In this document: positions 6,477 to 54,921 of the stretch, in pieces
How positions within the stretch are numbered: position 1 is the first letter of the stretch
Layout: each line of letters opens with the position of its first letter
Assembly (NCBI GenBank): GCA_002498125.1
Contig: DAGG01000029.1
Location: 898 to 64,897 of the forward strand
DNA from: Candidatus Woesearchaeota archaeon UBA525
GTDB taxonomy: Archaea > Nanobdellota > Nanobdellia > Woesearchaeales > UBA525
DNA: 64,000 nt
Direction of reading: 5' to 3'
Position numbers and translations under genes: made by a program
Notes under the pieces: generated by a model
The model's database searches: none
What the model was told of the DNA's origin: nothing
What the model saw: only the letters and a program-made list of their open reading frames with translations

Positions 6477-6488
6477 TTTCTTTTCCTC
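6477..6488 (+). terminator. Oligo-T archaeal terminator after 5S rRNA
   Basis: The run tttcttttcc lies directly after the predicted 5S 3' end. Confidence 0.4.
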
Positions 6489-21970: not shown

Positions 21971-22333
21971 CTACGTCGCCTTGGCGATGGCATAGACTTC
22001 GCCGGTATCGGGCCTGAGATATGCTAAGACTCTCGTGTTAAGGATACTGCCGTGACCGCCCATCTCCCTGACAAACTCATCGATTGCCTGCGAATTCCGG
22101 AACGTGAACCCCTTACGTTTCTTAGTCTCGTGGTCTTCGATGTCAAACCTGAGATCGAGGTAATCCTTCATCATCATAGTCTCGCGGATGACGGCGGTGC
22201 GTGCCTCGAGTTTCTTCTCCGAATACAAGGTCACTGGATTTTGATTCCCGTCGTCTTCGTGCGTATTAACGAAGTAGACATTGCTGCAGAGCGCTGGATC
22301 GAAGCCGTAGATAAACGGCATTGGAGGATTCAT
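21971..22333 (-). CDS. Hypothetical protein, last gene of the surface operon
   Basis: Its ATG overlaps the TGA of the upstream 946-aa gene (ATGA). The start is at MNPPMPFIYG. Confidence 0.4.
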   Translation of the reverse strand: MNPPMPFIYGFDPALCSNVYFVNTHEDDGNQNPVTLYSEKKLEARTAVIRETMMMKDYLDLRFDIEDHETKKRKGFTFRNSQAIDEFVREMGGHGSILNTRVLAYLRPDTGEVYAIAKAT

Positions 22334-25485: not shown

Positions 25486-26565
25486 CTAATAATATGTCTC
25501 TACCTTCTTCTCTGCATCCTCGACAGCCACCCTCTTGCGGGGCTTGTGTGGAGTTTCGGAGATGCGGGCGCTATCAGTGGAATCGTGGCGATCGTGCCTG
25601 CCACTCTTGCGAAGCACAATCACTATCGCGATGATGATGAGCGCGAGCAGGATGATGATGAAGATGCCTTGCAGCACCCAGAGGCCTGGGAAAACGGCAG
25701 GCTCTGCGCGCGGCGAGCGCACGTAGACGTCAATCGGAACGACGGTAGTTTGGTCGCCGCTCGTGATAGTGAGCTGGATGGTATAGGGACCGGCGTTGCC
25801 GCCTTCGATGTAGAGGTATACCTCATCGCCGTGGCCTGCCACGAGCGTCATGCGCGGAGCAGGGTCGATGCGCCAGGTGCCTGGAGACTGCACACCCAGG
25901 TCATAAGTCGCGCTGCTGTCGCCGAGATTCATGATAGATATAGGGATTATCGCGTTCTCGCCGTGATCGACATCGATCCTATTGAAGACATTGATGACTG
26001 TCGTGTCGAGCGGGCCGTCAGCTGTACCGCAGGCGTCGCTGCTCTGCACGATGATGCGCTCGCGCTGTGATTCGAGCACGCCGCCGGAGCTTGCGGTGAC
26101 TGAGAGGTCATACGCCTTGGCTCTCGCGCACTTCGGGATGCGCAGCCAGAAGTCAACGACTGCCATCTCGCCCTGAGGAATGTACGCTACGCGCTGCTCT
26201 GCGTCGATTCCCAGTTCTTTGTTCGCCACGCGCACAGTGATTTCACTGATGGGCCCTGGCTGACTATTGATCATACGGACTGTGAGGTGCGCTATCTCGC
26301 CCTGCTTGAGGTTCCCGTCAGGATTGACTATGATCTCCTCAAGGAGGCTGTCACAGGCGTCGCCAATCCGATCGCGGTCCATGTCGCGTTGCTCGCTATT
26401 GGCTATACCTGGGCAGTTGTCGAACTCATCGATGATACCATCGCAGTCGAAATCAGGCGCGGGCCCGAAGTTCGTCATGACCATGCATGCAGCATGGCCT
26501 GGAGCCGCAATAAGGCTTATACTAGCGATGAGAACTGCCAGGAACGTGCCCACGATCCATTTCAT
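25486..26565 (-). CDS. Surface protein with thrombospondin type-3-like Ca-binding repeat, CARDB-like domain and C-terminal TM anchor
   Basis: Signal peptide. DFDCDGIIDEFDNCPGIANSEQRDMDRDRIGDACD (TSP3-like). C-terminal hydrophobic helix plus basic tail. Paralog of 34985..36016. Confidence 0.65.
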   Translation of the reverse strand: MKWIVGTFLAVLIASISLIAAPGHAACMVMTNFGPAPDFDCDGIIDEFDNCPGIANSEQRDMDRDRIGDACDSLLEEIIVNPDGNLKQGEIAHLTVRMINSQPGPISEITVRVANKELGIDAEQRVAYIPQGEMAVVDFWLRIPKCARAKAYDLSVTASSGGVLESQRERIIVQSSDACGTADGPLDTTVINVFNRIDVDHGENAIIPISIMNLGDSSATYDLGVQSPGTWRIDPAPRMTLVAGHGDEVYLYIEGGNAGPYTIQLTITSGDQTTVVPIDVYVRSPRAEPAVFPGLWVLQGIFIIILLALIIIAIVIVLRKSGRHDRHDSTDSARISETPHKPRKRVAVEDAEKKVETYY

Positions 26566-26670: not shown

Positions 26671-27219
26671 ATGCGACCAATAGAATACCTCGAGACCGCA
26701 TGGCTGCTGCTACCCGACTCCCAAAGGCGCATGCAAGATACCGGACTGAATGTAGAGAACGTCACTTTGAGGGATATTGAAAATATTGCTCACGAAGAGC
26801 TGACGGGCAAGAGTTATAGTACAGCACTAAAGGAATTAAGAGCGGAACTGAGAACAGGCCCGCACTACGCTGCCGCGACAGTGAATCACATCTATCTCAA
26901 CCTCGATTCTGCAAACGACTTGAGTATCCCCCTCACCCAGTTCCTACTGCTCCACGAGCTGCACCATATCGGCTTCAACAGGAGGTTGATTGCACGAATC
27001 GAAGCGATAGGCGCCAATGACATCAGACCGTACATCGCAAGAGAGTTTCCCATCTGGACAATTGAAGGGTTCGCAGAGTACGGGGCGAGGCGCATAGTAG
27101 GACACGCCCCAAAACTAACGAATCACTACACTGCTCTGTGCTCAAGAATGCAAGACTTCGCCGCAAGTAGGGGAACGATGGGTCAAATCGCCGATGATAT
27201 CATCGAAATCTATTTCTGA
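26671..27219 (+). CDS. Small cytoplasmic HExxH-motif protein (zincin-like, unknown function)
   Basis: LLLHELHHIGF contains HExxH. No signal peptide. Confidence 0.45.
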   Translation: MRPIEYLETAWLLLPDSQRRMQDTGLNVENVTLRDIENIAHEELTGKSYSTALKELRAELRTGPHYAAATVNHIYLNLDSANDLSIPLTQFLLLHELHHIGFNRRLIARIEAIGANDIRPYIAREFPIWTIEGFAEYGARRIVGHAPKLTNHYTALCSRMQDFAASRGTMGQIADDIIEIYF

Positions 27220-30050
27220 AGTACGACCGCAGGCTTCCCAGGCAAGCCGTTCTGCGCCTTCGGAGATTCTGCAGCGCCGGCTTCGAGAATCTCTACCTTC
27301 TTACCAGCGATAGATTCAAGGTACTCGCGGGCGGACTCGAGCCACTCGCGCTCTTGCACAGCCGAAGGCACATCTTGTGGTTGGCGACCTCCCTTGACCA
27401 GGAACGTGACGAGACGCTGCAGTTCTGGGCCGTGCGCAGCGAGCGGTGTCGCGGAAAGGAGCTTCATGATCTCGGCAGGGTTACGCGTCGTCTTCGTCGC
27501 TTCGTCGAACGCCGCATATGCTTCGCGCTTCCAATCAGCAGCGAGGAAGAGCTGCACAGAGGCGGGAGCAGCACTCTTCTCCAGCTGTCGCTGGATGTCA
27601 TCCGCGACTTGGCGAACCATCGCCTCTCGCCTGTCGAGCGCGGGATCGAGAGCCGACGTGTCGACAGCAGGCCACGGCGCGACGCTCACAAAACCATCGT
27701 TGCCGAGCTTCCGCCATCCCTCCTCACACACGTGTGGGATAAATGGAGCAAGCATGACAAGCTGCGCCTCGAGACACTCGCGCAGCAGTTTCTTGTTCTG
27801 CTTACCCGCGGTCCTCACCACATACCACTTGAGCGCATGGTTGATCTCGAAGAACGCGAGTTGGATAGCAGTCCTGAAGTTAGTCTGCTCCATCGCGTCG
27901 GTAATATGTTGTACGGAAGACGCCATAGATGAGCGCAACCATGAGTCCACTGGAGTGGACGTTTCCTCGGTATTGCCCGTGACATCTTCACATGATCGAA
28001 GGAGTGTCTCGAACTTGCCGTGGAGGTTGCCTGCGAAGTTGGAATCCCAATTTGGATCATCCATGCCTTCGCCGCCGTTGAGGATTGTCATGCGCGTAGC
28101 GTCTGCACCGTACTCCTCTGTGAGCTTGCGCACAGGGATTACGTTGCCTAAGCTTTTGCTCATCTTCTGGCCGTTGACCGTTACCCAGCCATTGACTCCA
28201 ATTCCCTTCGGCCAGTGCTCCTCTGGGAAGATGGCACAGTGGTTGAAGAGGAAGAACGTGAGATGGTTCTGCACGAGGTCCTTACCGCTGTTGCGGAAGT
28301 CAACCGGATACCAGTACATGAACTCGGCGCGCAGCGCCTCCACATCAACTCCAGGCATGTTAGGCGCAGTGCCTTTCCCCAGGAGCACGTAGTCGAAGAA
28401 CCTCCTGTCGAGGAGCTTCGGGTCGATATCCTTGATACTGTGCACAATGGTATAGTACGCCATGTACGCTGTGCTGTCAGAGAGTGATTCGATGAGCCAC
28501 CGCTCGTCCCACGGCAGGCGCGTGCCCAAGCCGTACTCACGCGTGCACGCCCAGTCGTTGAGCCAGTCGATGACATACTCGAACTGCTGGCGCGATTTCT
28601 CAGGGTAGAGCGTGACGCCGTCGAGCGCGTGGTGCGTCTTGCGCTTCCACTCGGCGTCGCCATAGGTCACGAACCACTGATCAGATACTATCTTCACGAC
28701 GCTCTGCGTCTGGCAGCGGCATACGACCTTGCCGGTGAGTTCATAGAAGGTCTCTGCCTTCCCACTATCCAGCATGTCCTTCTTCATCTTGTCCTTGGCC
28801 TGCTGCACAGGTTCGCCTGCGTACGGGCCGACGAGCATCGTGCCCTCGTAAAATCCTTTCTTGTAGACTACTTTTTTCGCCTCGTCGAGCTTAGCGCGAT
28901 CATGCTGCGACTTGATGCCCATATCCTCGCAAATCCTCACCGCCGCCATGTCTCCGAGGTCGCTCGATTTGATGATCGCGATTGGCTTGATATCAGCAAC
29001 GATGTTAAGCGGAATCCCCTCCTTCTCAGCAGCGCCTGGTTGCTGCAAGTCGTGGAGACCCATCCAGTCGTCGGGTGCGTCACTCGGGACGCTTGTGACT
29101 ATTCCCGTGCCCTTATCTGGACTGCAGAAATGGCTGGGAAGCACAGGTACGGTGCGGTCGACTGCGGGCGCCATGGCCCTCTTGCCGAGGAGCTCGCTCC
29201 CTTTGACCTTCCCGATGACCTCGACTGCACGCTCCTGCATGAGGAGCTTCTCTGCGCATGCCGCGCTGATGATCCAGGTCTCCTGGCCATGAGGGCCTTT
29301 CACTCGCGCCTTGACGTACTCAATGTCCTTGCCTACCCAGAGGTTAGTCTGGCCGTAGACTGTCTCAGGCCGCAGTGTAGCGGCGATGAGGAACGTGCCT
29401 ATCTCGCCGTCGAGAGGGAACTTGAGCAGCGTGAACTCCTGCGGGGTCTCGCCTTCGCCGACGCTGCGCGCGTGGTCACTGACCGGCGCGCTCTCTTTAG
29501 GGCACCATACGACCGGGTGCCTGCCTTGCTGCACAAGGCCTTTCTCATGGAGCGTGGTGAACTGCCAGCGTATGAACGCGTCGTACTGGGGATTAAGGCT
29601 GGTTGTGATGAACTCGCGTCGCCAGTCGATGCTCAAGCCCACGGCGGAGACATCCTGTTTGTAGCGCGGAGAGAAGTACGCTATCCAGTGCTCTGGATCC
29701 TTGAAGAGCGGGATCTCGTGATCAGGAACGCCGTTCTCCTTGAGTATACCTATCTGCTTGGCGTCACCTTCAGTGACGCGCATGGCCGCGGTGGTTATGG
29801 GACTGCCGGTTGCGTGCCACGCTTGGGGAAACAGCACGTTGAACCCGCGGTGGCGTTTGTAGCGCGCAAATGCCTCGACACGCATCATCGTGAACAGGTG
29901 GCCGATGTGCGGCAGGCCGTTCACGTATGGGTAAGGGAATGTGCAGAAGAATTTCGGCGTGCCTTCCTTCGGCACTGCCTCAAAGAGCTTGGCCTTGTTC
30001 CACTCATCCTGCCAGCGCTGCTCGCGCTCGCGCGTCTGCTCAATACCCAT
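27210..30050 (-). CDS. leuS: Leucyl-tRNA synthetase (archaeal/eukaryal type)
   Basis: HIGH motif (PYVNGLPHIGHLF) and KMSKS (GQKMSKSLGN). Editing-domain-sized insertion. 946 aa. Confidence 0.9.
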   Translation of the reverse strand: MGIEQTREREQRWQDEWNKAKLFEAVPKEGTPKFFCTFPYPYVNGLPHIGHLFTMMRVEAFARYKRHRGFNVLFPQAWHATGSPITTAAMRVTEGDAKQIGILKENGVPDHEIPLFKDPEHWIAYFSPRYKQDVSAVGLSIDWRREFITTSLNPQYDAFIRWQFTTLHEKGLVQQGRHPVVWCPKESAPVSDHARSVGEGETPQEFTLLKFPLDGEIGTFLIAATLRPETVYGQTNLWVGKDIEYVKARVKGPHGQETWIISAACAEKLLMQERAVEVIGKVKGSELLGKRAMAPAVDRTVPVLPSHFCSPDKGTGIVTSVPSDAPDDWMGLHDLQQPGAAEKEGIPLNIVADIKPIAIIKSSDLGDMAAVRICEDMGIKSQHDRAKLDEAKKVVYKKGFYEGTMLVGPYAGEPVQQAKDKMKKDMLDSGKAETFYELTGKVVCRCQTQSVVKIVSDQWFVTYGDAEWKRKTHHALDGVTLYPEKSRQQFEYVIDWLNDWACTREYGLGTRLPWDERWLIESLSDSTAYMAYYTIVHSIKDIDPKLLDRRFFDYVLLGKGTAPNMPGVDVEALRAEFMYWYPVDFRNSGKDLVQNHLTFFLFNHCAIFPEEHWPKGIGVNGWVTVNGQKMSKSLGNVIPVRKLTEEYGADATRMTILNGGEGMDDPNWDSNFAGNLHGKFETLLRSCEDVTGNTEETSTPVDSWLRSSMASSVQHITDAMEQTNFRTAIQLAFFEINHALKWYVVRTAGKQNKKLLRECLEAQLVMLAPFIPHVCEEGWRKLGNDGFVSVAPWPAVDTSALDPALDRREAMVRQVADDIQRQLEKSAAPASVQLFLAADWKREAYAAFDEATKTTRNPAEIMKLLSATPLAAHGPELQRLVTFLVKGGRQPQDVPSAVQEREWLESAREYLESIAGKKVEILEAGAAESPKAQNGLPGKPAVVLQK

Positions 30051-33195: not shown

Positions 33196-33690
33196 TTATA
33201 CGCGGCGTCCGCGCTTTCCGCCCTTCTTGCGGCATCCGCCGTGGGGGATGGGGGTGACGTCCTCGATGAGGCCAATCTTCAGGCCGCGGCGGCTGAGCGC
33301 ACGGACTGCTGCCTGCGCACCAGGACCTGGGTTCATCGGGCCATTGTGCCCGCCAGGTGCGCGGATGCGAATGTGCACGCCAGTGATGCCCTTATCGAGG
33401 CAAATCTCGGCGAGCTTACGTGCGCCGCTCATCGCGGTCGTCGGGCTGCTCTCGAGGCGGTCTGACTTGACCATCTGGCCACCGCTCACGAGACCGATGG
33501 TCTCGCTGCCGGTGACGTCAGTGACGTGCATGATCGTGTTGTTGTATGAGCTGAAGATGTGGCAGATGCCCCAGCGGGTAGACTGAGCCCTCTGCTGTGG
33601 GACTGCCTCAGGAGCGGGAGCCTCGGCTGCTGTCGCGATGTTCGCGGTCGCTGCCTCTTCAGTTGCGTGCGGTTTTGTCATGATTATCAC
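33196..33690 (-). CDS. rps11: 30S ribosomal protein S11 (uS11), with Ala/Glu-rich N-terminal extension
   Basis: [19 protein letters not shown] core. Confidence 0.85.
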
Positions 33691-34418
33691 TCAGTCTTAG
33701 GTTCAGGAGCTACGGGAGCATCGTCAGCCAGTTCAGGAGCGTCCATCTTGAGATCAGCGACTGAAGCATCAGCGTCAAGGTCGCCCTTCTTCTTCTCCTC
33801 AGGGTCCTCGACTTCTGTAGCCTCGAAGACGACAATCTCGTCGCTCTTGAATCCGCGCTTCTTGTCCTTTGCGCGCTGCTTCTGCTGCTTGCGGAGCATG
33901 AGGTCCTCATTGAAGCTCTCAGGGTGCTCTGTGCTCATGTATGCGCTGTCCGGAGCGTAGCCGATGCTTGACTCCTCTCCCAGGGGGACGAGGAATGATG
34001 GTGAAGTCACCTTCTTTCCGCCGACACTGATGTGCTCGTGCACGATGAGCTGGCGGGCGTGGTGAATGCTGCGCGCGAGGCGCTTCTTGAATACGAGTGT
34101 CTGGAGGCGACGGTTCATGATGTCGCGCAGCTGCAGGCCAAGGATGTCATCCATGCCACCGTCCATCTTAATCAGGGCGAGGCGCGTCATGCGCGACACC
34201 ATCTGCTGGCGTTCCTTCTCAGCCTGCTCATCGAGACGCGTGAGCAGGAGCTTCGCCTGGTCCTTAAAGGACTTCAGGGCAGATTCCATCTTCCATATCT
34301 CCTTCTTGTTCGCGACACCATACTTGCTCTTGATGTCACGCTCAAGCTGGATGCGCGTGGCGTTCCACGGGTGCATCGGCGTCGTGTACTTCTTCTTGAA
34401 ACGCTTGATGTCTCCCAT
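33687..34418 (-). CDS. rps4: 30S ribosomal protein S4 (uS4), with ~60-aa acidic/Lys-rich C-terminal extension
   Basis: [19 protein letters not shown]..., the archaeal S4 N-terminus. The tail [33 protein letters not shown]...APEPKTE goes beyond the usual length. Confidence 0.85.
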
Positions 34419-34984: not shown

Positions 34985-36016
34985 TTATTTAAAAGCCTTG
35001 TGGTTGCGCGTCGAGCGGTGCGTCAGGAACGCCGCCGCGAGGAGCACGAGCAGGACGAAGATCACAAATCCCCAGAAGAGCTGCCGTCCTGGCGCTGGAG
35101 GAGGAGCCACTGGTTCGGGGATGTTCGCGAGCAGCAGTATCTGCTTGGCGTCGTCGCGTGCCTGGACTGTGAATGTGAAGCTGCGCTTGCCTTCGATGCC
35201 TGGGCGCGCCCATACCTGTATTGCGCCGTCGCGCGCTTCGCCTGCAGGAATCACGATGACCGTACCAGGATTGATCTCAGCGTAGCCCCACTCATCGAGG
35301 CCTGTCGCGGAGAGCACGTATGCCCTACTCTCTGATTGCTTGTTATGGATGGTGAATGGGTAGAGTGCTCCTGTCGGGCCGACATCCTGCACCTCAAGGA
35401 TGTTCACTACCGTCGTGTCGCCGCCAGTCTCGGCATCGCATGTGCCGCTGGAGACTACTGGTGCCCGGACCGCCTGGGAGAAGTATTCTTTCTGTCCCGG
35501 CGCGAATGGGTACTCTGCGATGATTGCGAAGTCGGTCATCCTGGTCGCTGCGCACTCAGGCACGCGCACGATGAGCTCGCGTTTGGTGCGCTCGCCCGGC
35601 TGGATGACTGAGATGCGCTCGTTCGCCGCGACGCCGAGGCGTGGCACGTCGAGCTTGACCTCGACGTTGCGCATCGGGTAGGCGCGCGAGTTCATGAGCC
35701 AGACCGACACCACGAGGCTGCGGCCTTGCATCGGACTCTCTGGCTCGAAACGGATCTCATCGATGACCAGGTCACACGCGTCGCCGATGCCGTTGCGGTC
35801 ACGGTCTACCTGGTCTGGATTGTTCGTGAGCGGGCAGTTGTCGAACGGGTCTGGTGTGCGGTCGCAGTCGACATCGCGCAGCGCGCCCTCGTTCGTGGAA
35901 ATGACGCAGCCACTGAAGCCTGCCGGAGGCAGTTCCGCATATGCAGGCACTACTAATGATAAGAGTATAAGGATGGCCGCCAGGTTCTTGCCCCAGTGCA
36001 TAGGCTTGGAGTCCAC
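34985..36016 (-). CDS. Surface protein with TSP3-like Ca-binding repeat, CARDB-like domain and C-terminal TM anchor (paralog of 25486..26565)
   Basis: Signal peptide. DVDCDRTPDPFDNCPLTNNPDQVDRDRNGIGDACD. C-terminal FWGFVIFVLLVLLAAAFL anchor plus basic tail. Confidence 0.65.
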   Translation of the reverse strand: MDSKPMHWGKNLAAILILLSLVVPAYAELPPAGFSGCVISTNEGALRDVDCDRTPDPFDNCPLTNNPDQVDRDRNGIGDACDLVIDEIRFEPESPMQGRSLVVSVWLMNSRAYPMRNVEVKLDVPRLGVAANERISVIQPGERTKRELIVRVPECAATRMTDFAIIAEYPFAPGQKEYFSQAVRAPVVSSGTCDAETGGDTTVVNILEVQDVGPTGALYPFTIHNKQSESRAYVLSATGLDEWGYAEINPGTVIVIPAGEARDGAIQVWARPGIEGKRSFTFTVQARDDAKQILLLANIPEPVAPPPAPGRQLFWGFVIFVLLVLLAAAFLTHRSTRNHKAFK

Positions 36017-36219: not shown

Positions 36220-37977
36220 TCAGAACCGTATCTTTATCCCGCCGTAGATGGATTTGGAGTTCATCTCCTGCGTAAAGTCTGGGAGGACTATGTCGCGCTG
36301 CGTCTCGCCGTAGCGGATCTGCGGCCCGATGTCCACGCGTCCTGCGTTAATCATCCAGTCTGCGCCGACCTCCCATTCGTTCTGCACCTCGAGCTTTGCC
36401 CCCGCGATGTCCTCGCTCTCCTCTCCGAAGTGGTGTTTGTAGCTGCCGAAGAGGTCGAAGCTGTTCTCCTTGCCGAAAATAGTCATCGGGTTCTCCATAG
36501 TCAGCTGGCCAAAGGCCTTAGCTGCAGGGTTCTGGAATTTCACAGTCGCCGGATCACCAGGCCTGAAGTCTGGTGCGAAGGTGCGGTAGAACTCGTCGTG
36601 CACTTCGTAACCTGCGCCGACGCCGACGTGGCTCTTATCGAGATCGCCGATCATCGGACCGATGTAGATGCCTGCTGAGAGCGGGTCGAAGGCCTGCGTC
36701 ACGCCTGTCTTCGCAGTGTCGTTCTGTGTGATGCTCGCATCGATGTTCACGAACGGCTTGATGAAGAAATCAGTGAAGCTCTTCGTGACCTCAAGCTCGA
36801 GACCGGTTGTCTTGAGCTCATCAGCGAAGTACTGCTCGAAACGTGATGGAGCGAAGGTCTGCTGCTCGAGCTCTTTCATGAACGCCGTGATTGCGACAGC
36901 GAGGTCAGGCCTCTTGTACGCCGCCTCAAGTGCCATTGATGGACCCTCGAACTCCTGGAGGATATTAATAGTGTCACATGGCGCCTCGCAGTACTTGCTC
37001 TCGTTCGGAATGATAGTCCTGACATCCATGTTCGTCACATCGACGAGCGGAGTCAAGGACCACGGCTTTACACGGGGACGTTCAAATTCCACAGGTTGCG
37101 GGACTGGCGGCGGGACAAACACCTGCTCCGGCACGCAGTCAGGACACTCGATAGTACAGTCGCCAGTGCATACTTGTCCTGGCTTTAGTCCTGCTGTCCC
37201 GTCGCACTGCTCTCCTACCTGGTTGATAATCCCGTCGCCGCAGTAAGGCGCTGGTACCACAGGTGTAGGAGGGATGAGTTCCTGGACTGGCCGCTCGCAC
37301 GCGAGAAGCGTGAGGTCGAGGCCGTAGCTCGCGCATAGCTTCTTGTCAGGACCGCGCAGCACGACGAAGAGCTTCTCCTTCGTGAATATCGTGTCCTTGA
37401 CTTCATCATGCGTGATCACATAGTCCTTGACTGCTGCCCTGATGCGTGAGTCCTTTGACCATAGAGATACCTTATACCCCGCCTTCTTCTGCGCTGCAGT
37501 GAGTTTCGGCAGTCCTATCTCGAGCTTATCCTCGGGGTAGAGGCAGTACTCCTTGTTCGCTGTGAGGCGGTCGCACTCTCCAACGTCAACCTTGAACTGG
37601 TTGTACTGGCCATCTATGTATGTCGTAATCGGCGTGGGACCGATGAACTTGAGATTGGGGGGACAAGGGTTCTCGGCAGTGCAGTCCTCGAGCGTCCTTA
37701 CAGGAGTTGAGTTCTGGACTACTCGCACATTTAGCTTTGACGCGAGTGTCTCCTGCCGAGCAGGTTCCTTCTCGAACGAGAATCTCGCTGTGCTGTTCTG
37801 CACGACAGCGTTCTTCTCTGCGCGGATGAGCTCCACCTTCTCGCCCTTCTGCACTATCTTCGCGCCTGCGATGGGCGTTGGGGAGTGGGTCTGTGCCTGC
37901 AGCGGTTGCGTTTGCAACGCAGGGCTCAATGTCATTGAGATAAGAGAAGCGAGGGCTATGGTGGTGTTCGGTTTCAC
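36220..37977 (-). CDS. Secreted Cys-rich protein with beta-strand-rich C-terminal domain ending ...YGGIKIRF (OMP beta-barrel-like signature)
   Basis: N-terminal signal-like segment. CGDGIINQVGEQCDG...CTGDCTIECPDC Cys-rich module. The C-terminal ~250 aa show alternating hydrophobic/polar strands, are rich in G/Y/F/N, and end in a terminal Phe. Confidence 0.6.
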   Translation of the reverse strand: MKPNTTIALASLISMTLSPALQTQPLQAQTHSPTPIAGAKIVQKGEKVELIRAEKNAVVQNSTARFSFEKEPARQETLASKLNVRVVQNSTPVRTLEDCTAENPCPPNLKFIGPTPITTYIDGQYNQFKVDVGECDRLTANKEYCLYPEDKLEIGLPKLTAAQKKAGYKVSLWSKDSRIRAAVKDYVITHDEVKDTIFTKEKLFVVLRGPDKKLCASYGLDLTLLACERPVQELIPPTPVVPAPYCGDGIINQVGEQCDGTAGLKPGQVCTGDCTIECPDCVPEQVFVPPPVPQPVEFERPRVKPWSLTPLVDVTNMDVRTIIPNESKYCEAPCDTINILQEFEGPSMALEAAYKRPDLAVAITAFMKELEQQTFAPSRFEQYFADELKTTGLELEVTKSFTDFFIKPFVNIDASITQNDTAKTGVTQAFDPLSAGIYIGPMIGDLDKSHVGVGAGYEVHDEFYRTFAPDFRPGDPATVKFQNPAAKAFGQLTMENPMTIFGKENSFDLFGSYKHHFGEESEDIAGAKLEVQNEWEVGADWMINAGRVDIGPQIRYGETQRDIVLPDFTQEMNSKSIYGGIKIRF

Positions 37978-38092
37978 AGGGTTACCTCGGCCTCTGGAGT
38001 CAAATGTTCGCTATTTATGCATGAGTTGCGGACTGGCAAAAGAAGAGACTGAAAAATTGTCAGAAAAGAGATTGATAAGAGGAGGATGAAGA

Positions 38093-39796
38093 TTAGAAGC
38101 GGTAGTTGCCGAAGACACCGAGTCCGATGTCCGAGCTCTTGAAAGGGGTGCCATCGATGAAGGTGGAATCCTCCTCGCCGAACTTGACGCGGCCTGATAC
38201 GCCGAAGGGGTTCTTGCTCTCCGGGTTGAATATCCACTCCACGCCGGCCTCGCCGTTGAAGACGTAGGAGTCGTCGAGTATCTCCTTCCAGTTGGTCGCG
38301 CGCTGCGTCTGCGGAGCCATTACCCTGCCGGTGCCGAAGATGCGGACGTGATCATCTACAGTGTAGAGCTGGAACGACGCTTCACCTTTGAACATGCGCT
38401 CTGTGACACCGTCGCTGCGGCGGTCATTTGTCGTAGAGTTGTTCGGCCTGCCGAAGTTCATTCGCTGCGCGCCATATCCTGCCTTGATCTTCAGATGACT
38501 GCCGTCCTGGTAGCCGATCATGCCAATGAGATTGGCATAGCCGTCGACGCTCCTGTAGCGCATGACAGTATTGTCATCTGAAGGACCGCGCATACCAAGT
38601 CCCTCGCCGAACGTCACGCTCGAGTACGAGCCATCCAGACCAAGCCCGATGCGGGCCCGTGCGTGGCCAAACGTCTGCTCGTAGTTGAAACTCGGGCTGA
38701 ATGCCGTAATCGTGTTCTCGAGCGTGTTGTGGTAGCGGTTGCCTGTCCCGTTGTCACCGCGGCTCGATGCCGCCTGGATTGAGAAGAGCGTGTTGTCATC
38801 TGTGAACTTGAACTGCGCCATGAGCTGGGATCCACTATAGGTCTCCTCTTCGGGGATGAAGACCTCCTTGTTGTTGCGCGTCACCCAGTAGCCAGTCTGG
38901 AAATTGTGCTCGAACGATCCCAAGCCGAGGTTGAACTCCCTATTACCGGCGTTCCTGAGCGGCTTCTCGCGATGCCTACGCCACAGGGTGCGTTCTTCAC
39001 GTACAACGTCTGCCGGCACATCATCTCCTGCCGTCGCCTCTGCGACCACAGTGACTGTCTCAGAAGGGGTCCTCACCGTCGCCTCTGCCCGCGCTGCTGA
39101 GGAACTGCCCGTCGCTGTCGCCTCTGCGGAGACTTCAGTGACATAGTTGCAGTCGCGCGCGGTTATTGTCGCACCGATGTTGCGCGCGTCAACGCGTTTG
39201 CCATTCCTATCACGCAGGACGAGCGCAAAGTTCTCCTTAGGGAGCTTGAGTGTGTAAGTGTTATACGAACCGCTGGTATCGGTGTCGATTGTCTTGAAGT
39301 ACTGGACGTACTTGCGGTCATTGGCGCTGAGCGCGCCACTGCGGATCTCTACGCCATCAATGGCACCATTATCTACGAGCCAGCTGAACTTAGGTCTGCC
39401 TGCCATCTCGTAGCGGAGAGTATATCCTGCGCGCGCCTGCGCATCAGTGAGGTCCGGTAGCACGAGCTTTACCTGATCGCCAGGAGTGCAGAACCCGCCG
39501 ATTGTGCCCATGCCGTAATCGACGATGCGGTCGAGCGATGGATCACGTCTCTCGCGAATGACCTGTCGCGCAGGGGCCTCCTTGACTTTTCTTACGACCT
39601 GTTTCTCAACAGGAGCGACAGGTGTGCACGGCGATACTGCCGCCTCGCCGCAAACTGGCTTGGCTTCGCGCACGAATGGTCTGACAATCGCTTGCTTTGC
39701 GTCATGCATCCACTGACGGAGTCCTGCCTCTGCGTTAGGCGCAGCGAGGCTCAAGAGCCCGGCCGCGATGATCGCTTTCGTGAGATTCTTGTTCAT
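38093..39796 (-). CDS. Secreted protein, paralog of 36220..37977, C-terminal beta-rich domain ending ...LGVFGNYRF
   Basis: Sec signal MNKNLTKAIIAAGLLSLAAPNAEA. Shares the motif LP.LT.AQ..AGY with its paralog. The C-terminal ~300 aa have an alternating pattern and a terminal aromatic-R-F. Confidence 0.6.
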   Translation of the reverse strand: MNKNLTKAIIAAGLLSLAAPNAEAGLRQWMHDAKQAIVRPFVREAKPVCGEAAVSPCTPVAPVEKQVVRKVKEAPARQVIRERRDPSLDRIVDYGMGTIGGFCTPGDQVKLVLPDLTDAQARAGYTLRYEMAGRPKFSWLVDNGAIDGVEIRSGALSANDRKYVQYFKTIDTDTSGSYNTYTLKLPKENFALVLRDRNGKRVDARNIGATITARDCNYVTEVSAEATATGSSSAARAEATVRTPSETVTVVAEATAGDDVPADVVREERTLWRRHREKPLRNAGNREFNLGLGSFEHNFQTGYWVTRNNKEVFIPEEETYSGSQLMAQFKFTDDNTLFSIQAASSRGDNGTGNRYHNTLENTITAFSPSFNYEQTFGHARARIGLGLDGSYSSVTFGEGLGMRGPSDDNTVMRYRSVDGYANLIGMIGYQDGSHLKIKAGYGAQRMNFGRPNNSTTNDRRSDGVTERMFKGEASFQLYTVDDHVRIFGTGRVMAPQTQRATNWKEILDDSYVFNGEAGVEWIFNPESKNPFGVSGRVKFGEEDSTFIDGTPFKSSDIGLGVFGNYRF

Positions 39797-39804
39797 GTGT
39801 TCAC

Positions 39805-42384
39805 CTAGTAATTAAACTGGACATCATTCTCGAGGAGCTTCCCTATCACGCTCTCTTCCATGGCCTGTGCCTGGAACGCGTACTCATACATGATACGTTC
39901 GAAGAGAGGCTTGTCATCATTGTGTATCGCGGTCTTCGCCCTACCTATGCGCATGATCTGGTCGCGATCATAGCCATCCGGCGTGCCGCAGGTCTTCTTC
40001 TCGTCGCAGTACTTATGCAGGTCCTGGACGAGAACCAGGCCTCTCTCCACATACTGCATCCTCTCAGCATCTGAGGAGAATCGCTTGTTCTGGATACCAT
40101 CGAACATCACTTTCACTTCTCCGATGAGCCTCTTCTCCTCAGGAGAGAGAGTGTACTCGATGCCCTGATTATCACGGCCGGTCGTACCCTGCGGGCCGTT
40201 GTACTCAGATGTTACAGGTGCTTCAGCAGTCGTCTTCGGACTGTAATCGAATATAGGCGGTGACGTAGAGCTCTCCGTAGGAGCGACCTTGACAGACGCG
40301 GCTGCCACGGAATTGTCCGCGCTTGCGTACGCATGCACGTCTACGACGGGCTTCGGCTGCTCGTACACGATCTCATCGAGCGTCGTGCTCGGGATATCCC
40401 ATGAAGGGTCGTCACCAGGAACGTTGTACGAAACCGGCGGCTGCGCTGGAGGCTCCAGAATCTCAGGGACGCGCGCGTCCGGAATCGGAGACTGCTTGTA
40501 CTCCAATGGCTGCGCTGCAGGAGTCCTGTCAGGAACTGGAGGAGCTTTGTACTCCGGCACAGGCTCCGATGCTGCAGGCGCTTTGCGCTCAGGCACCGAT
40601 TCCTGAGAAGATGAGTTATACACTGGAGCGGGCGACGTGGCCAGCGCAGTGACGATGAACCGTATAGGCACCTTCACGCTCTGCACGATCGTGCCGTCAC
40701 TATCACGGGCAGCGATGTCGTACACGAGGATCTTATCCTGCTTTAACTCGCCGTAGGATATGGTGAGCTGACCATCGATGGCGCTCGCCAGCGCGATGTC
40801 CTCTGCAGTGTTGAACGTCGGCGAGAGCGATGCGCTCACTGCCCGCTTGTCTTGCGGCAGATCGAGCGTGAACGAATCCCCGGCGCTCTTGAGGTAGACC
40901 GTGGTTATCGCATGCTTGCTCCACAATCCTTCTAGCTCTGTCGCCATCACTCCGCGCACCTTAACGTTCGTGCCTTCGAGCGTGTTGTCGAGTGTGAAGA
41001 CGGGGTCGCCGCGGGGAAGTCCCTTTTGCCTTGTGCTGAGCGTGATGCGCTGCGCGATGCCGTCAGAGATGACAACCGCTGCAGGGTTGAGTAGGTAGTC
41101 GCCTGATGTGTTGAACCTGCTCTTGTACACAGGCTTCGATGCGCCGTTATACTCAACAGGAGGTTCTGCTCGCGCAGGAGACGTGGTGGAAGGCACGTCT
41201 TTCGACGGGCTTGTGGAAGCAGCGCTTGCAGGCGTACCGCTTGCTGACGAGTTGCTTGCCGATGCACCGGAAGGAGTATAGGACGCTGAGTCAGCACCTG
41301 CTGATGCGCCGGCGGCCGCTCCCGAAGCTGTGCCGCCATCGATGATTTTCTCGAGTGGAGGAGTGAGAAGATCAGGTGACGCTGAGGAAGGTTCTGCACG
41401 CGGCAGAGGTGTGATGGTCTCGGCCGGAGTGGTCTGCGTGAGCGCAGTGTCGAGTGCCGTACCGAAAGCAGTATCAGTCGGTGATGGAGAATATGGATTG
41501 GGTGCAGTGCTTGTGAGCACTGTATCGGTGAGTGTGGTATCTGTGATTGCTGTATCGAGCGCGGTGCTTGCTGGCGCGCGACGGTAGCCAGACATCGTTC
41601 CCGTAGGGACGACGCTCTTGTCTTCCGGCGTGGCGCGCTCTAATCCGCTGGCAGGGCGCTGGACCTGACGGCTCACTTCAGCCCTGCGCTGCTCGTACAC
41701 AACAGATCTCTTCTGGAGTTCGGCAATGCCGTAGCCTGCGGCGATGAAGCCAGCTCCAATAGCAGCACCGACGAGGACAATCTTGCCTTTCCTCTTCAAA
41801 CCATCGTTGCTGAAATCCGGCTTATGCACCCAGTCGGGCTTGTGCACGTACAACCACTCGCGCGAACTGCGCGTCCGCTCCTTGAGGACATTGCCGGTGT
41901 TGGAGAATGCGTTCCTAGTGCCTGCGCGCATCTTCTCGTCGGCATTGTCCATCGTGATACGGTACTTTGAATATGCATGCTTCGCCCCTGCGCCTGTTGC
42001 GATAAATGGTTTCTTCATGGCAGAACTGTAACGCTTCAACCGCCCCGGCGATTTCTCTGCTTCGCCAACAGGCGTTTCAGGAAGCGCTACTCCGGCAGCC
42101 GCTACATCAGAGAGGTGGTCTTCAGCAGTCGGTTCAGGCGTGCCTGCAATCTCATCGAGACGCTCATCTATCGCCTTATCGAGATCCTGGTCCTCAATGC
42201 GCACCCGCCGCGTCTCGAACTCATCAAGTGTCTCAGCCACAGAGTTCTCCTGTGCAGAAGCACCAGTATGCTCAGACACCATATCTGATTCTGAGAGTTG
42301 CTCAATGTCCTCATTTCTAGGATTCGTAGGATTGTCGTCAGGCATATGCGTCCTCAAGTCTGGCGCGGTCCATTCTTCTCCCAT
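39805..42384 (-). CDS. Giant single-pass membrane surface protein with acidic N-terminal (cytoplasmic) region, S/T/P/A-rich stalk and Pro-rich PxEYK-type repeats
   Basis: One TM helix (KIVLVGAAIGAGFIAAGYGIAEL) at about aa 195-217. Long low-complexity Ser/Thr/Ala/Pro region, a likely O-glycosylated stalk. Globular C-terminal domain. TATA-like gtgatttaaataag sits 27-34 nt upstream. Confidence 0.6.
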   Translation of the reverse strand: MGEEWTAPDLRTHMPDDNPTNPRNEDIEQLSESDMVSEHTGASAQENSVAETLDEFETRRVRIEDQDLDKAIDERLDEIAGTPEPTAEDHLSDVAAAGVALPETPVGEAEKSPGRLKRYSSAMKKPFIATGAGAKHAYSKYRITMDNADEKMRAGTRNAFSNTGNVLKERTRSSREWLYVHKPDWVHKPDFSNDGLKRKGKIVLVGAAIGAGFIAAGYGIAELQKRSVVYEQRRAEVSRQVQRPASGLERATPEDKSVVPTGTMSGYRRAPASTALDTAITDTTLTDTVLTSTAPNPYSPSPTDTAFGTALDTALTQTTPAETITPLPRAEPSSASPDLLTPPLEKIIDGGTASGAAAGASAGADSASYTPSGASASNSSASGTPASAASTSPSKDVPSTTSPARAEPPVEYNGASKPVYKSRFNTSGDYLLNPAAVVISDGIAQRITLSTRQKGLPRGDPVFTLDNTLEGTNVKVRGVMATELEGLWSKHAITTVYLKSAGDSFTLDLPQDKRAVSASLSPTFNTAEDIALASAIDGQLTISYGELKQDKILVYDIAARDSDGTIVQSVKVPIRFIVTALATSPAPVYNSSSQESVPERKAPAASEPVPEYKAPPVPDRTPAAQPLEYKQSPIPDARVPEILEPPAQPPVSYNVPGDDPSWDIPSTTLDEIVYEQPKPVVDVHAYASADNSVAAASVKVAPTESSTSPPIFDYSPKTTAEAPVTSEYNGPQGTTGRDNQGIEYTLSPEEKRLIGEVKVMFDGIQNKRFSSDAERMQYVERGLVLVQDLHKYCDEKKTCGTPDGYDRDQIMRIGRAKTAIHNDDKPLFERIMYEYAFQAQAMEESVIGKLLENDVQFNY

Positions 42385-42513: not shown

Positions 42514-43908
42514 ATGATTGTTGCGTATACGGAGAGCATTTATATATGCTGCTGGACGGAAATCATAGGTGAGAGCTTGACGTACGACATCGTGGTGGGA
42601 AGGAGCAAGCACGATAAGGAGAAGTACGGCACGCAGGGTACCATTTTCTTAGGTAAGCACTATGTCACCATGGGACAGACCGTGGCGCTCAGCAACAAGG
42701 TCTTCTTGGACATGATCCGCAGCCACGTCATATTCGTCTGCGGCAAGCGCGGAGGGGGAAAGTCATACACCATGGGCGTGATTGCCGAAGGCATGGCAGA
42801 CCTGCCCGATAGCATCAGGAAGAACCTGAGCATCATCATGCTCGACACCATGGGCATCTACTGGACCATGAAGTACCCGAACATCAAAGAGAAGGAGCTC
42901 CTCAGCAGCTGGACCATGGAGCCAAAGAGCTCCGACATCACCATATTCACGCCAAAAGGTTTCTACGACAAGGCCAAAGAAGAAGGCATCCCGACAGACA
43001 GGCCGTTCGCAATAAAACCGAGCGAACTCCTAGGCAGCGACTGGGTAACGACATTCAGCCTCGACCCGAACAGCGACGTCGGCGTCCTCATCGAGCGCAC
43101 AATCCACAACCTGCAGGAACGTAAGGAACAAGGAGAGGACTTCAGCCTCAGAGACATACTCTCAATGATTGAACAGGACAAGGAGACGGCGGCTAACACG
43201 CGCGCTGCGGCGCGCAACCACTTCATCGCTGCCCAAGGATGGGGCATCTTCTCAGACCAGGGAACACCGCTCTCGGAGCTCGCGCAACCAGGACAGATCA
43301 CAGTACTCGACCTCTCCGCCTACTCGACACAGGAGAACGGCTGGGCAGTGAAGTCACTCGTCACAGGTCTCGTGAGCCAGAAACTCTTTCTCGAGCGCAT
43401 GACTGCGCGCAAGACTGAGGAGTTCCGCCAGGTCCACCGTGACGTGAACTACCTTGCTGAGGATGACGACCTGCAGCAGGAGATGCCGCTCGTCTGGCTC
43501 GTCATCGACGAAGCGCACGAGTTCCTGCCGAACCAGGGCAAGACGCTCGCGAGCGACCCGCTCATCACCATCCTACGAGAAGGCCGCCAGCCTGGCATCA
43601 GCCTCATCCTCGCGAGCCAACAGCCAGGCAAGATTCACACTGATGTGATGACTCAGGCGGACGTCGTGATCAGCCACCGTATCACCGCAAAGCTCGACAC
43701 CGATGCGCTTGGGATGCTCATGCAGTCATACCTACGCGTCGGCCTGGACAAACTCTTAGATGGATTGCCCCGCACATCGGGAGCTGCACTCATCCTCGAC
43801 GACAACAACGAGAAGATGTTCCCTATCCAGATCAGGCCGCGCTTCACCTGGCACGGCGGCGAGTCGCCCACAGCGCTCAAAAAAGAGAAAGAGCTCTTCG
43901 AGTTCTAG
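42514..43908 (+). CDS. HerA/FtsK-superfamily P-loop ATPase (DUF87/HerA-like central domain)
   Basis: Walker A GKRGGGKSYT and Walker B VWLVIDEAHEF. A short N-terminal barrel-like segment (DIVVGRS...GTIFLG). The start may be an internal TTG/GTG (42577-42595), because a TATA-like box lies immediately upstream of the ATG at 42514. Confidence 0.7.
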   Translation: MIVAYTESIYICCWTEIIGESLTYDIVVGRSKHDKEKYGTQGTIFLGKHYVTMGQTVALSNKVFLDMIRSHVIFVCGKRGGGKSYTMGVIAEGMADLPDSIRKNLSIIMLDTMGIYWTMKYPNIKEKELLSSWTMEPKSSDITIFTPKGFYDKAKEEGIPTDRPFAIKPSELLGSDWVTTFSLDPNSDVGVLIERTIHNLQERKEQGEDFSLRDILSMIEQDKETAANTRAAARNHFIAAQGWGIFSDQGTPLSELAQPGQITVLDLSAYSTQENGWAVKSLVTGLVSQKLFLERMTARKTEEFRQVHRDVNYLAEDDDLQQEMPLVWLVIDEAHEFLPNQGKTLASDPLITILREGRQPGISLILASQQPGKIHTDVMTQADVVISHRITAKLDTDALGMLMQSYLRVGLDKLLDGLPRTSGAALILDDNNEKMFPIQIRPRFTWHGGESPTALKKEKELFEF

Positions 43909-52824: not shown

Positions 52825-52885
52825 CCTAGGATTTAAGCTTTTACAGGAAAATCCTTAAGAACAACAGCGTATTGACAACATTGTC

Positions 52886-53199
52886 GGGCGGGAAGTCGAC
52901 TCCCGCTGTATAGTGAGAAAAGTCCTGGCACCCCCGCAAGGGAGCCGCAAGGCGGCCGCTCGTGGAAGCGAGGAGGGGAAACCCTACGGCAACGAACGGA
53001 CAGAAACGGACCAACCGTCGCAGGGATGATTCCCGGCAAGGTCTGGCGACAGGCCCTTGAAGGATGACGTCGCGACGGACGCGGATGAAACGAACGTCCC
53101 GGCCGGTGCAAGGCCAGTATGGCCGCTCAGTTGAATGTCGATGGTTGTGGTCCGAGGTCAGACCCCGGCGCAGCAGCAGAACCAGGCTTACTCCCGCCC
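52886..53199 (+). ncRNA. rnpB: RNase P RNA (archaeal type A-like)
   Basis: 5' GGGCGGGAAGTC...GAGAAAAGTCCTGGC (P4/CR-I, GNAAAGUCC). 3' ACAGAACCAGGCTTA (CR-V) then ACTCCCGCCC, which pairs with the 5' end (P1). Internal GGGAAACCC and AAGGCGGCCGC helices. The ORFs over this region are spurious. Confidence 0.75.
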
Positions 53200-53247
53200 G
53201 ACACCTCATCATCAAGCTTTAAGTATCGAAGCGGAATCCCCTCGCGT

Positions 53248-54921
53248 ATGGGGCTTGTGAAGAACATAATCGCAGGAGCACTGTTTTCTGTTCTTGCAGC
53301 AACGGCAGGAGCACAGACGAGCGACAGCGGCTACAAACCGCGCACTATCGATGTCAAACAGAGCGTTATACGCACTGAGTCTGTCCAGACGGGTACCGTC
53401 CAAACCGATGCTGTCGAATCCACGAGAAGGCGCAGGGCAGTCCGGCACGGCAACGATGAAATGCCATTCCCCTACACTGAGTGGGGCCAGAGCCTACGCA
53501 TCTCCATCACGAACCCACAATCCACTCCATGCCCTATCCAGTTCGCGATCGACGGCCAGGCATTCTACGGCCTCTCGTTCAACATCCCGCCAGGAATGAG
53601 TTGGGTAACTGAGGATTTCCACTACGACGTGATGCCGCGTTTCGATGAAGAGTTCTCTCTTAGATCAGACTGCGCAGTCACGAGCATGAAGATCACGCAC
53701 TACGGCAGGTCACCGGGTGGCGTCTACGGTCACAGCATCGAGCCACGGCGCACCAGCGAAGCGTTGAGGCCGCAGCCAGGAAGGTTCAACATCCTCGTAG
53801 CTCCAGCGCCCGACGTAGAGGGTATGGATCTCAGTATCGCGATCAAAACGACAAGCAAGAATGATACTATCATCAGTCCGAGCATCGCGCAGTCGTACGA
53901 AGGTGCGCTCTTCAGCTATGCGGTCGGCAAGCAACCAATCCTCGCACTGCAGGGCAAGTATGGTTTCGGAGAGGGTATCGCGCGCGATGATGAGACAGGA
54001 TTCATCACCCGCGTGCCGGAAGCGCCGGTTTTCGGACTTCGCGCGTCTGTCTCCGCGGCAGTATACACCCCGCAGTGGCGTATCAGCGAAGTCCCAGTAC
54101 TGGGCGAGGCCATCATCCGTGATCTCGAGAGGAATCGCGACTCGTACGCCGCGCTCGTCGAGAATGAGTGCACAGATTGGGCGGTGATCCTCGGCGTGGC
54201 GAACAAGGTACCGGGATTCTCGGCGAACACACCGGAACCGATGGGATACACGACTGTTCCGACATTCTACACTGGCGAAGGCAGCATGTACATCGGAGTG
54301 GCCACGAATACACACGTGGAGAACGGCATGCACAAGTACGGATGGGCTTTCGAGCATCCCGCCAGACGCAACCCAATACCGCTCATCCAGCCGGAAGGCA
54401 CGTACTCTGCACTCGAGATTGTGTGCGCGCAAGATGAAAAGTGCTTCATCCCGTTCGCGAACACGCAGCAGAGAGATATCCAGGGACTCATAGGTGTCGA
54501 GCGCAATATCATCGGGACTGAGAAGGACCTCGTCGATTACGGTGAGATGGGTATCGCGACAATGATCGGCGAGTACAAGGGGGCGAGGACCGAGTTCGAC
54601 TTCTACGCAAAAGAGCCAACGATATTCCGCGTCGATGTCTTCAATGACCTCGGCGAAACGTTCGGAAGCGCGATGTACACAATGGGAGCGCAGGAGTACC
54701 GCCGCATCAGGCTCACCGACATCGCGCAGTGCGCTCCTCATCCTGAGATGACCTACGGCCATGCGCGCATCGTCGTGCAGAACGAAGGCGGCCGGATCCT
54801 CGGCGGCTTCTCGCGCTTCGACAACGGCGGCGGCGACAAGATCGTCGGGAAGTTCAACCCGGTCAAAATCAACGGGCAGTTGTACGAAGGAACATACCCC
54901 GACATCGTCTGCAGCCGCTAG
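53248..54921 (+). CDS. Secreted hypothetical protein (558 aa)
   Basis: Signal peptide MGLVKNIIAGALFSVLAATAGAQT. The start is set at this Met because the longer ORF (from 53119) would overlap the RNase P RNA. Confidence 0.55.
   Translation: MGLVKNIIAGALFSVLAATAGAQTSDSGYKPRTIDVKQSVIRTESVQTGTVQTDAVESTRRRRAVRHGNDEMPFPYTEWGQSLRISITNPQSTPCPIQFAIDGQAFYGLSFNIPPGMSWVTEDFHYDVMPRFDEEFSLRSDCAVTSMKITHYGRSPGGVYGHSIEPRRTSEALRPQPGRFNILVAPAPDVEGMDLSIAIKTTSKNDTIISPSIAQSYEGALFSYAVGKQPILALQGKYGFGEGIARDDETGFITRVPEAPVFGLRASVSAAVYTPQWRISEVPVLGEAIIRDLERNRDSYAALVENECTDWAVILGVANKVPGFSANTPEPMGYTTVPTFYTGEGSMYIGVATNTHVENGMHKYGWAFEHPARRNPIPLIQPEGTYSALEIVCAQDEKCFIPFANTQQRDIQGLIGVERNIIGTEKDLVDYGEMGIATMIGEYKGARTEFDFYAKEPTIFRVDVFNDLGETFGSAMYTMGAQEYRRIRLTDIAQCAPHPEMTYGHARIVVQNEGGRILGGFSRFDNGGGDKIVGKFNPVKINGQLYEGTYPDIVCSR

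Follow-up and report, generated by a model that had tools for sequence, protein, structure and literature searches.

A pair of exported proteins with predicted 12-stranded beta-barrel domains represents a small family in Woesearchaeota-like DPANN archaea

We analysed a 64,000-nucleotide stretch of DNA from Candidatus Woesearchaeota archaeon UBA525 (contig DAGG01000029.1; hereafter the window), concentrating on two neighbouring genes of its minus strand, here called A and B. An initial annotation made from the letters of the window had claimed for both products a C-terminal beta-barrel like those of bacterial outer-membrane proteins (OMPs). The C-terminal domain (C-domain) of these proteins is predicted, with good support, to be a closed 12-stranded antiparallel beta-barrel of bacterial outer-membrane type, and this fold assignment is backed both by a confident structure prediction and by concordant sequence features. 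Sequence comparison assigns A and B to a small family that has not been described before and that we found only in Woesearchaeota-like DPANN archaea. Transmembrane beta-barrels are regarded as a signature of the outer membranes of bacteria and of the organelles that descend from them, mitochondria and chloroplasts, and insertases of the Omp85 family are considered necessary for their assembly.

Gene A (36220-37977, minus strand) encodes 585 residues from a GTG start and ends in ...IYGGIKIRF, and gene B (38093-39796, minus strand) encodes 567 residues from an ATG start and ends in ...GVFGNYRF. These open reading frames (ORFs) correspond to the public gene calls P0001 and P0006, respectively, and the coordinates, strand, lengths and C-terminal sequences initially reported for them were all exact. 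The product of A is laid out as a signal peptide, a Cys-containing N-terminal domain (N-domain), a linker of Cys-repeat and Pro-rich sequence and the predicted C-terminal 12-stranded barrel; B has the same architecture, with a low-complexity Ala/Thr/Ser linker. The signal peptide of A covers approximately residues 1-29 (MKPNTTIALASLISMTLSPALQTQPLQAQ; 37891-37977, minus strand) as read from the sequence, and the Sec signals of its orthologs are clearer. That of B covers residues 1-24, ending ...LSLAAPNAEA before a Gly (39725-39796, minus strand, likewise read from the sequence), and the N-terminus MNKNLTKAIIAAGLLSLAAPNAEA followed by Gly is by inspection of the Sec type. A signal peptide with n, h and c regions and an Ala-X-Ala-type end could be recognised by inspection in all full-length family members, and the initial call of signal peptides in A and B stands. 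Neither protein has an alpha-helical transmembrane segment.

The N-domain occupies residues 95-232 of A (37282-37695, minus strand; hidden Markov model (HMM) envelope), is of mixed alpha/beta type and carries the motif LPKLTAAQKKAGY and the conserved Cys pair C145/C227. In B it occupies residues 85-221 (39134-39544, minus strand; HMM envelope and alignment), with the motif LPDLTDAQARAGY and Cys103/Cys216. Both motifs conform to the pattern LP.LT.AQ..AGY that had been noted at the outset as common to the two N-termini (BLASTP E 0.001). The linker of A contains a DUF4215/myxo-type Cys-rich repeat at residues 244-285 (37123-37248, minus strand; weak Pfam and NCBIfam matches) and then a Pro-rich stretch. 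The predicted barrel domain takes up residues 306-585 of A (36223-37062, minus strand), with 12 antiparallel strands in the AlphaFold2 (AF2) model and a last strand SIYGGIKIRF; in B it takes up residues 281-567 (38096-38956, minus strand), which the alignment maps onto the 12 strands modelled for A, with a last strand IGLGVFGNYRF. The relatedness of A and B is weak in pairwise BLAST and firm at the profile level, where HHalign gave 98.8% between A-like and B-like C-domains (E 4.9e-17, 239 columns) and 97.4% between their N-domains (E 1.5e-11). Because both domains scored highly and the cross-domain controls remained at 0-0.1%, we conclude that A and B are paralogs, as first proposed.

The AF2 model comprises residues 95-585 of A and was built from an 11-sequence multiple sequence alignment. 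Its mean predicted local distance difference test (pLDDT) score was 78.4, with four of the five models scoring 74-78; a run on only two sequences (A and its ortholog P0002) gave a pLDDT of 29.5. The C-domain was modelled at a pLDDT of about 90 or higher as 12 antiparallel strands of 12-21 residues each, joined by loops of 2-14 residues, and 184 residues of the model reached a pLDDT of at least 90. The N-domain appeared as a mixed alpha/beta fold (pLDDT 65-86), and the linker was disordered (pLDDT below 50). The predicted barrel has an even number of strands and both of its ends on the same side.

When the model was compared with the PDB using Foldseek, all of the top 50 matches were outer-membrane barrels (E 6e-6 to 6e-4), including the bacterial OmpT/Pla, autotransporter translocators, FadL/TodX, OpcA, CymA and porins; their TM-scores, normalised to the full two-domain query, were low (0.26-0.31). 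Structural comparison with individual barrels gave scores of 17.1 for EstA (253 residues at 13.3 Å), 15.4 for KdgM (163 of 171 residues at 3.2 Å), 15.2 for NanC (175 of 204 at 2.9 Å), 15.1 for PcoB (168 of 198 at 3.1 Å), 14.8 for NalP (212 of 277 at 3.7 Å), 14.5 for both Tsx (196 of 251 at 3.8 Å) and AIDA-I (220 of 303 at 4.0 Å), and 14.3 for BrkA (210 of 245 at 4.0 Å). The model thus superposes on 86-95% of the closed 12-strand barrels NanC and KdgM at approximately 3 Å. The OMP-like closed barrel proposed in the initial annotation was therefore borne out by a closed 12-stranded prediction whose neighbours are exclusively outer-membrane barrels, and since the Foldseek and structural neighbours are barrels only, they speak against the beta-sandwich or beta-helix that the annotation had named as the contrary outcome. 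Searches of A and B against Pfam and NCBIfam returned no S-layer, Ig-like, beta-helix, beta-sandwich or adhesin match. We also considered an S-layer or adhesin beta-sandwich and rejected it, as the fold and family evidence is contrary and the Ig-like and S-layer signals of this locus belong to a 343-residue neighbouring protein described below. Matches in a viral fold library were weak and confined to bacterial OMP genes carried by phages, and we therefore see no viral link.

Features of the sequences that are independent of AlphaFold point in the same direction. Across the 12 predicted strands, the hydrophobicity of family alignment columns correlated at -0.37 for lag-1, +0.32 for lag-2, -0.35 for lag-3 and +0.27 for lag-4, and in nearly every predicted strand columns that are 80-100% hydrophobic family-wide alternate with columns that are 0% hydrophobic. 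By a crude count, the C-domain of most members contains 7-10 dyad-hydrophobic windows, compared with a median of 1.4 per 100 residues for ORFs of the window. B has eight such windows compared with 4.1±1.6 in shuffled sequences, and 40 of 2000 shuffles reached eight. The alternating hydrophobic and polar residues that had been read into both C-termini are accordingly evident at the level of the family and in B by itself, but not in A alone when set against shuffles. The strands are also rich in Gly and aromatic residues. In a lax Pfam scan of the members, OMP_b-brl (PF13505) and TonB_dep_Rec_b-barrel (PF00593) were the only membrane-protein families to recur: the former matched three alignment members and the B ortholog B2, the latter two members, giving five members overall, with every match inside the C-domain. 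The best E-value was 6.7e-5 among the alignment members, and values ranged from 7.5e-5 to 8e-3 in the per-protein scan; the best scores were 23.2 bits for PF00593 (cutoff 27) and 21.4 bits for PF13505 (cutoff 28.7). A itself matched neither family.

The extreme C-terminus is suggestive in sequence terms, though not diagnostic of a membrane barrel. Counted back from the last residue, that of A is hydrophobic at positions 1 (F), 3, 5 and 9 (I in each case) and has Gly at 6 and 7, a pattern reminiscent of a bacterial beta-signal. Phe is the terminal residue of A, B, P0002 and P0009, and Trp that of P0011. Other orthologs end in ...LLKFGK, ...IWRPGK, ...TIRFGK, ...GFTFR, ...NVEFGGKEEIRQP and ...QYRFNMPWQK, the chain running on from the last-strand aromatic as RFGK, RPGK, TFR, EFGGKEEIRQP or RFNMPWQK. 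The terminal Phe put forward as a hallmark is present in A and B, but the terminal aromatic-R-F is not a strict property of the family, the aromatic being displaced in about half of the members. This displaced aromatic, with its 1-9 extra residues, is more like mitochondrial beta-signals than the strict terminal Phe of bacteria.

The family is rare, numbering about a dozen sequences among approximately 15 billion proteins. With a C-domain profile, HMMER searched exhaustively through 1.84 billion cluster representatives and recovered only eight proteins at E<=0.001. Two further members came from a word search driven by a profile, one of them being the gene at the equivalent position in Candidatus Woesearchaeota UBA10207. 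The A ortholog P0002 (41% identity) comes from a farmland-soil contig on which the B ortholog B2 (31% identity, E 3e-42) lies directly upstream and a thrombospondin-repeat gene downstream. All members share a plan of signal peptide, N-domain of about 135 residues, variable linker and C-domain of about 285 residues, and the linkers are Pro-rich, of low complexity or made of DUF4215 Cys repeats. Conservation in the N-domain centres on CDR, LP.LT..Q..GY, GK.C.SY...C and an invariant Cys pair; in the numbering of A, R137, C145 and C227 are invariant. Neither A nor B matched a curated family in Pfam or NCBIfam apart from the weak DUF4215/myxo_disulf_rpt repeat in the A linker, a repeat that passes the Pfam threshold in the ortholog P0010 (31.8 bits).

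Other searches for relatives were negative. A word-indexed homolog search with B gave no match because its 90% cluster is represented by a 49-residue fragment. A pattern scan of GTDB genomes with the A alignment and two pattern scans of metagenome contigs with the A and B alignments found no relative, and a sequence search of the PDB with the family profiles yielded one chance match (E 0.4) and then none. Among 80 S13-anchored neighbourhoods from GTDB genomes, tblastn and HMM searches detected a member only in the closest relative, UBA10207; the more distant Woesearchaeota, Nanoarchaeota and methanogen genomes lacked the family at this locus, and it is therefore confined to a narrow clade.

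The setting of A and B is archaeal, as the initial annotation had it. S13, S4, S11 and RNA polymerase subunit D (RpoD) are directly downstream on the same strand, and the window also encodes an archaeal RNase P RNA (52884-53201, plus strand; 98.7 bits) and a class-I aminoacyl-tRNA synthetase (27210-30050) whose equivalent in one relative has a Leu-specific domain. The best match of the S13 protein, at 70% identity, is its counterpart in UBA10207, with the next-best matches in metagenome-assembled genomes of other Woesearchaeota, Nanoarchaeia and Nanoarchaeota. This comparison places the genome in a Woesearchaeota/DPANN neighbourhood rather than among the double-membrane lineages that had been suggested by name. 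The GC content of A and B (0.555-0.565) is close to that of the window (~0.57). The same locus was present in 10 of 10 independent contigs retrieved from NCBI, ENA, JGI and Logan, and where contigs were long enough the order was a divergent DUF87/HerA-type ATPase, a large family-less membrane protein, one or two family genes and a thrombospondin type-3 (TSP3) protein, followed by an S13-S4-S11-RpoD-L18e-L13-S9-RpoN operon and then leucyl-tRNA synthetase. Conservation of this neighbourhood in independent contigs excludes misassembly and disfavours recent horizontal acquisition. The initial suggestion of horizontal acquisition consequently fared poorly: all traced members lie at one archaeal locus with normal GC, no bacterial donor family was found and no Pfam OMP model reached threshold. 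A recent transfer from bacteria was rejected for the lack of a donor and of a compositional anomaly.

Upstream of B is a gene for an 859-residue protein (39805-42384, minus strand) with one transmembrane helix at residues 202-221, a large Ser/Thr/Pro-rich exported part and no known family. Its N-terminal ~200 residues are acidic and cytoplasmic, and the exported part is also rich in Ala. B starts 8 nt past the stop of this gene, and the two are probably co-transcribed. Downstream of A, the TSP3 gene (34985-36016, minus strand; Pfam and transmembrane-segment assignments) encodes 343 residues, or 338 from the next ATG, with a signal peptide, a thrombospondin type-3 Ca-binding repeat, Ig-like FixG_C/NPCBM_assoc domains, a C-terminal transmembrane anchor and a weak NCBIfam match to 'putative S-layer protein'. 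Orthologs of this protein (330-355 residues, E 1e-119 to 1e-137) stand beside every family gene and are far better conserved than the barrel genes; it may be the main envelope or S-layer-like protein of the lineage. Reading by eye, we found A/T-rich TATA-like boxes before A, the 859-residue gene and the TSP3 gene. The last of these boxes lies only ~8 nt before the GTG, suggesting that the true TSP3 start is the ATG five codons downstream, which matches the public 338-residue call. The TSP3 gene and S13 are separated by only ~100 bp in the window, compared with an insertion of ~2.2 kb in UBA10207 (L004, 7193-8963) that holds small kinase-like ORFs on both strands. On the other side, the divergently transcribed DUF87 (HerA-type)/Zot-like P-loop ATPase gene (42514-43908, plus strand; Pfam and synteny) is a conserved neighbour of the cluster, and its functional tie to the cluster, for which conserved adjacency is the sole basis, is uncertain. 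In one relative (L085, 5063-7683) the equivalent region has intein-splicing and LAGLIDADG domains, and the ATPase there appears to be interrupted by inteins.

The closest known fold is that of the small 12-stranded monomeric outer-membrane channels of the KdgM/NanC family, Tsx and PcoB, to which A is 6-10% identical in sequence. A and B differ from these in having an extra N-terminal domain and linker, and no Pfam KdgM, Tsx or OMP model reaches threshold in the family. The likeness to the generic OMP superfamily (PF13505, PF00593) consists in Gly- and aromatic-rich strands and, more tentatively, a beta-signal-like last strand. Archaeal comparisons are more distant. The pore protein of Ignicoccus is small and alpha-helical, lacks a beta-barrel and is in this respect unlike A and B. 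This Ihomp1 pore complex is an archaeal protein proposed for an outer membrane, in a lineage that lives in close cell contact (PMC4243693). A possible distant porin-like (PopA-like) relative in Altiarchaeales has been mentioned in passing (PMC12228718); PopA belongs to a different superfamily, and Altiarchaeales are a different lineage from that of A and B. Our search of the literature found no report of beta-barrel membrane proteins in Woesearchaeota.

We tentatively prefer, at somewhat less than even confidence, a reading in which the barrel resides in an outer lipid layer of the archaeon itself, with the N-domain in the inter-membrane space tethering it to the neighbouring envelope proteins. 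Here we infer the embedding in a membrane, the membrane concerned, the topology of the N-domain, the partnership with neighbours and the function as a pore. A and B would be exported through their Sec signal peptides, and the barrel would sit in a lipid layer beyond the cytoplasmic membrane, either an outer membrane or a membrane-like envelope, where it would act as a small monomeric pore, an anchor or both. The N-domain would remain in the inter-membrane space and would link the barrel to the TSP3/Ig-like protein and the large single-pass protein encoded alongside. In favour of this, the cluster neighbours are envelope proteins with transmembrane anchors, and the conserved Cys pair and Cys-rich repeats, as read from sequence, are compatible with an extracytoplasmic location. 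That this archaeon possesses an outer membrane is a plausible hypothesis. Double membranes are on record for Ignicoccus, for ARMAN (also DPANN), for the SM1/Altiarchaeum lineage and possibly for Methanomassiliicoccus, all of which interact closely with other organisms (PMC4243693), and diderm archaea that include a DPANN lineage provide a precedent for the preferred reading.

Several observations weigh against it. The host of A and B, unlike those of KdgM/NanC, Tsx and PcoB, is an archaeon without a demonstrated outer membrane or beta-barrel assembly machinery (BAM). A scan of the 20 larger genes of the window revealed no Omp85, BamA or POTRA gene, and archaea are not known to have any such insertase. 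The structural model is of A only and derives from few sequences, the strands of B having been mapped onto it by alignment. A shows no excess of dyad-hydrophobic windows (5 against 4.4 in shuffles), and no member attains the gathering score of a Pfam OMP model (12.6-23.2 bits against 27-28.7). The last aromatic lies 1-9 residues from the end in P0012, P0010, P0014, P0015, B2, P0008 and P0013. No homolog of the 859-residue protein was detected in the related loci that were fetched, which have other large family-less genes in its place. Finally, a 2026 preprint names Ignicoccus as the only archaeon currently known to have inner and outer membranes (10.64898/2026.09.08.750209). A bolder version, which we consider doubtful, is that a clade of Woesearchaeota-like DPANN archaea has a true outer membrane whose barrels are independent of, or have diverged beyond, the known bacterial OMP families and are assembled without Omp85/BAM; insertion would then be spontaneous or depend on archaeal machinery as yet unknown, possibly encoded in the same conserved cluster.

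The same fold evidence would apply equally if a monoderm DPANN cell exported the barrel into the membrane of a partner at a contact site, with the N-domain tethered to surface proteins of the symbiont. The target might be a bacterial host's outer membrane or that of an archaeal host with two membranes, where the barrel, as a channel or an anchor, would let the symbiont take up nutrients or attach. Most DPANN archaea live as ectosymbionts that depend on contact, and the co-occurrence of Woesearchaeota with methanogens fits such a role; Woesearchaeota also correlate with bacterial communities, and their hosts are unknown (PMC6349945). The lack of an insertase among the window genes scanned, long flexible linkers suited to bridging two cells, and the fast divergence of A and B from their orthologs (41% and 31% identity) beside a well conserved neighbour, as expected of a host-interaction protein, all lend some weight to this view. 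We nevertheless judge it unlikely. Known pore-forming effectors build oligomeric barrels from hairpins rather than inserting pre-formed monomeric 12-stranded barrels, BAM inserts bacterial OMPs from the periplasmic side, beyond the reach of an external cell, no host is known, and the fixed place of the genes beside a ribosomal-protein operon looks like that of a housekeeping envelope gene. An autotransporter-like arrangement of type Va, in which the barrel would be both translocation pore and anchor, the linker would thread through it and the N-domain would be displayed outside as an adhesin, is improbable for other reasons. The order of signal peptide, N-domain, linker and C-terminal 12-stranded barrel is that of type Va, the barrels of EstA, NalP, AIDA-I, BrkA and EspP share the fold of the A model at 5-12% identity, and DUF4215 linker repeats occur in other surface proteins (P0003, P0004). 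However, DSSP shows no helix in residues 138-211 as numbered in the model, a Pro-rich stretch, and no alpha-helix is predicted to fill the pore or to precede strand 1, the linkers being Pro-rich or made of Cys repeats. Likewise, no member matches the Pfam Autotransporter model PF03797 even at E-values up to 10, and in place of a beta-helix passenger these proteins have a small alpha/beta N-domain, probably disulfide-bonded, of a kind that passes poorly through a 12-strand pore. An outer membrane would still be required.

Two further explanations do without a membrane or question the barrel itself. The C-domain could be a soluble or S-layer-integrated barrel, for example one that binds lipids or other ligands in a hydrophobic interior, its likeness to OMPs being purely geometric. 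Soluble barrels show dyad patterns too, and one paper presents nearly all described archaea as having an S-layer and not an outer membrane (PMC5744192). Yet twelve long strands enclose a lumen too broad to be filled by a packed hydrophobic core, the abundance of Gly and aromatics in the strands and the charges on their alternate face are features typical of membrane barrels, and the recurrent Pfam matches were to OMP families only, so that we hold this to be quite unlikely. Least probable of all is an artefact, either over-confidence of AlphaFold when given a shallow alignment of a Gly/Tyr/Asn-rich region or bacterial DNA that was mis-binned. The small alignment, the failure of the two-sequence run and the low Foldseek TM-scores would fit the former; set against them are the 184 high-confidence residues, the agreement of four of five models, and the periodicity and Pfam hints, which do not depend on AlphaFold. 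Misassembly is excluded, since assemblies made independently from different samples and sources show the same synteny.

Elsewhere in the window we noted further genes of interest. A 946-residue surface protein (22330-25170, minus strand) combines a signal peptide with Ig-like domains (FixG_C and Big_9) and several hydrophobic stretches, and its paralog-like partner of 359 residues (25486-26565, minus strand) has a thrombospondin type-3 repeat and a C-terminal transmembrane anchor. Ribosomal protein S4 (33687-34418, minus strand) bears a C-terminal extension of ~60 residues that is acidic and rich in Ala, Pro and Asp, for a length of 243 residues compared with 222-231 in related loci. A glycan-synthesis cluster (137-7551) comprises an NAD-dependent epimerase, two FkbM-type methyltransferases, two family-2 glycosyltransferases and a Wzx-like polysaccharide-biosynthesis flippase, whose ORF as annotated overlaps at its start with a stand-alone 5S rRNA gene (6360-6476). 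Overlapping the 3' end of the RNase P RNA is a 600-residue ORF (53119-54921, plus strand) that is secreted, family-less and unrelated to the barrel family; its sequence suggests that the true start is probably the Met at codon 44, which opens the signal peptide MGLVKNIIAGALFSVLAATAGAQ. Two adjacent radical-SAM proteins of 271 and 288 residues (16172-17841, minus strand) are encoded beside an ATP-binding cassette exporter with fused transmembrane and nucleotide-binding domains (14409-16166), and together these could form a peptide-maturation and export module. A 459-residue ORF (20239-21618, minus strand) has no Pfam family and a weakly hydrophobic N-terminus.

The sequence family to which A and B belong is new, and for this fold class it is unusual to occur as a pair of conserved genes passed on vertically in a DPANN archaeon. 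The two genes and their roughly ten orthologs are concrete, clonable targets. If the barrel assignment is true, either some DPANN archaea are diderm and have barrels, or monoderm cells deploy barrels, for example into the membrane of a partner. Either outcome would bear on the origin of outer membranes and beta-barrels, on insertion without BAM and into ether-lipid membranes, and on the exchange of material between ultra-small symbiotic archaea and their hosts. Should the clade prove to have an outer membrane whose barrels are assembled without Omp85, transmembrane beta-barrels would extend to the third domain of life.

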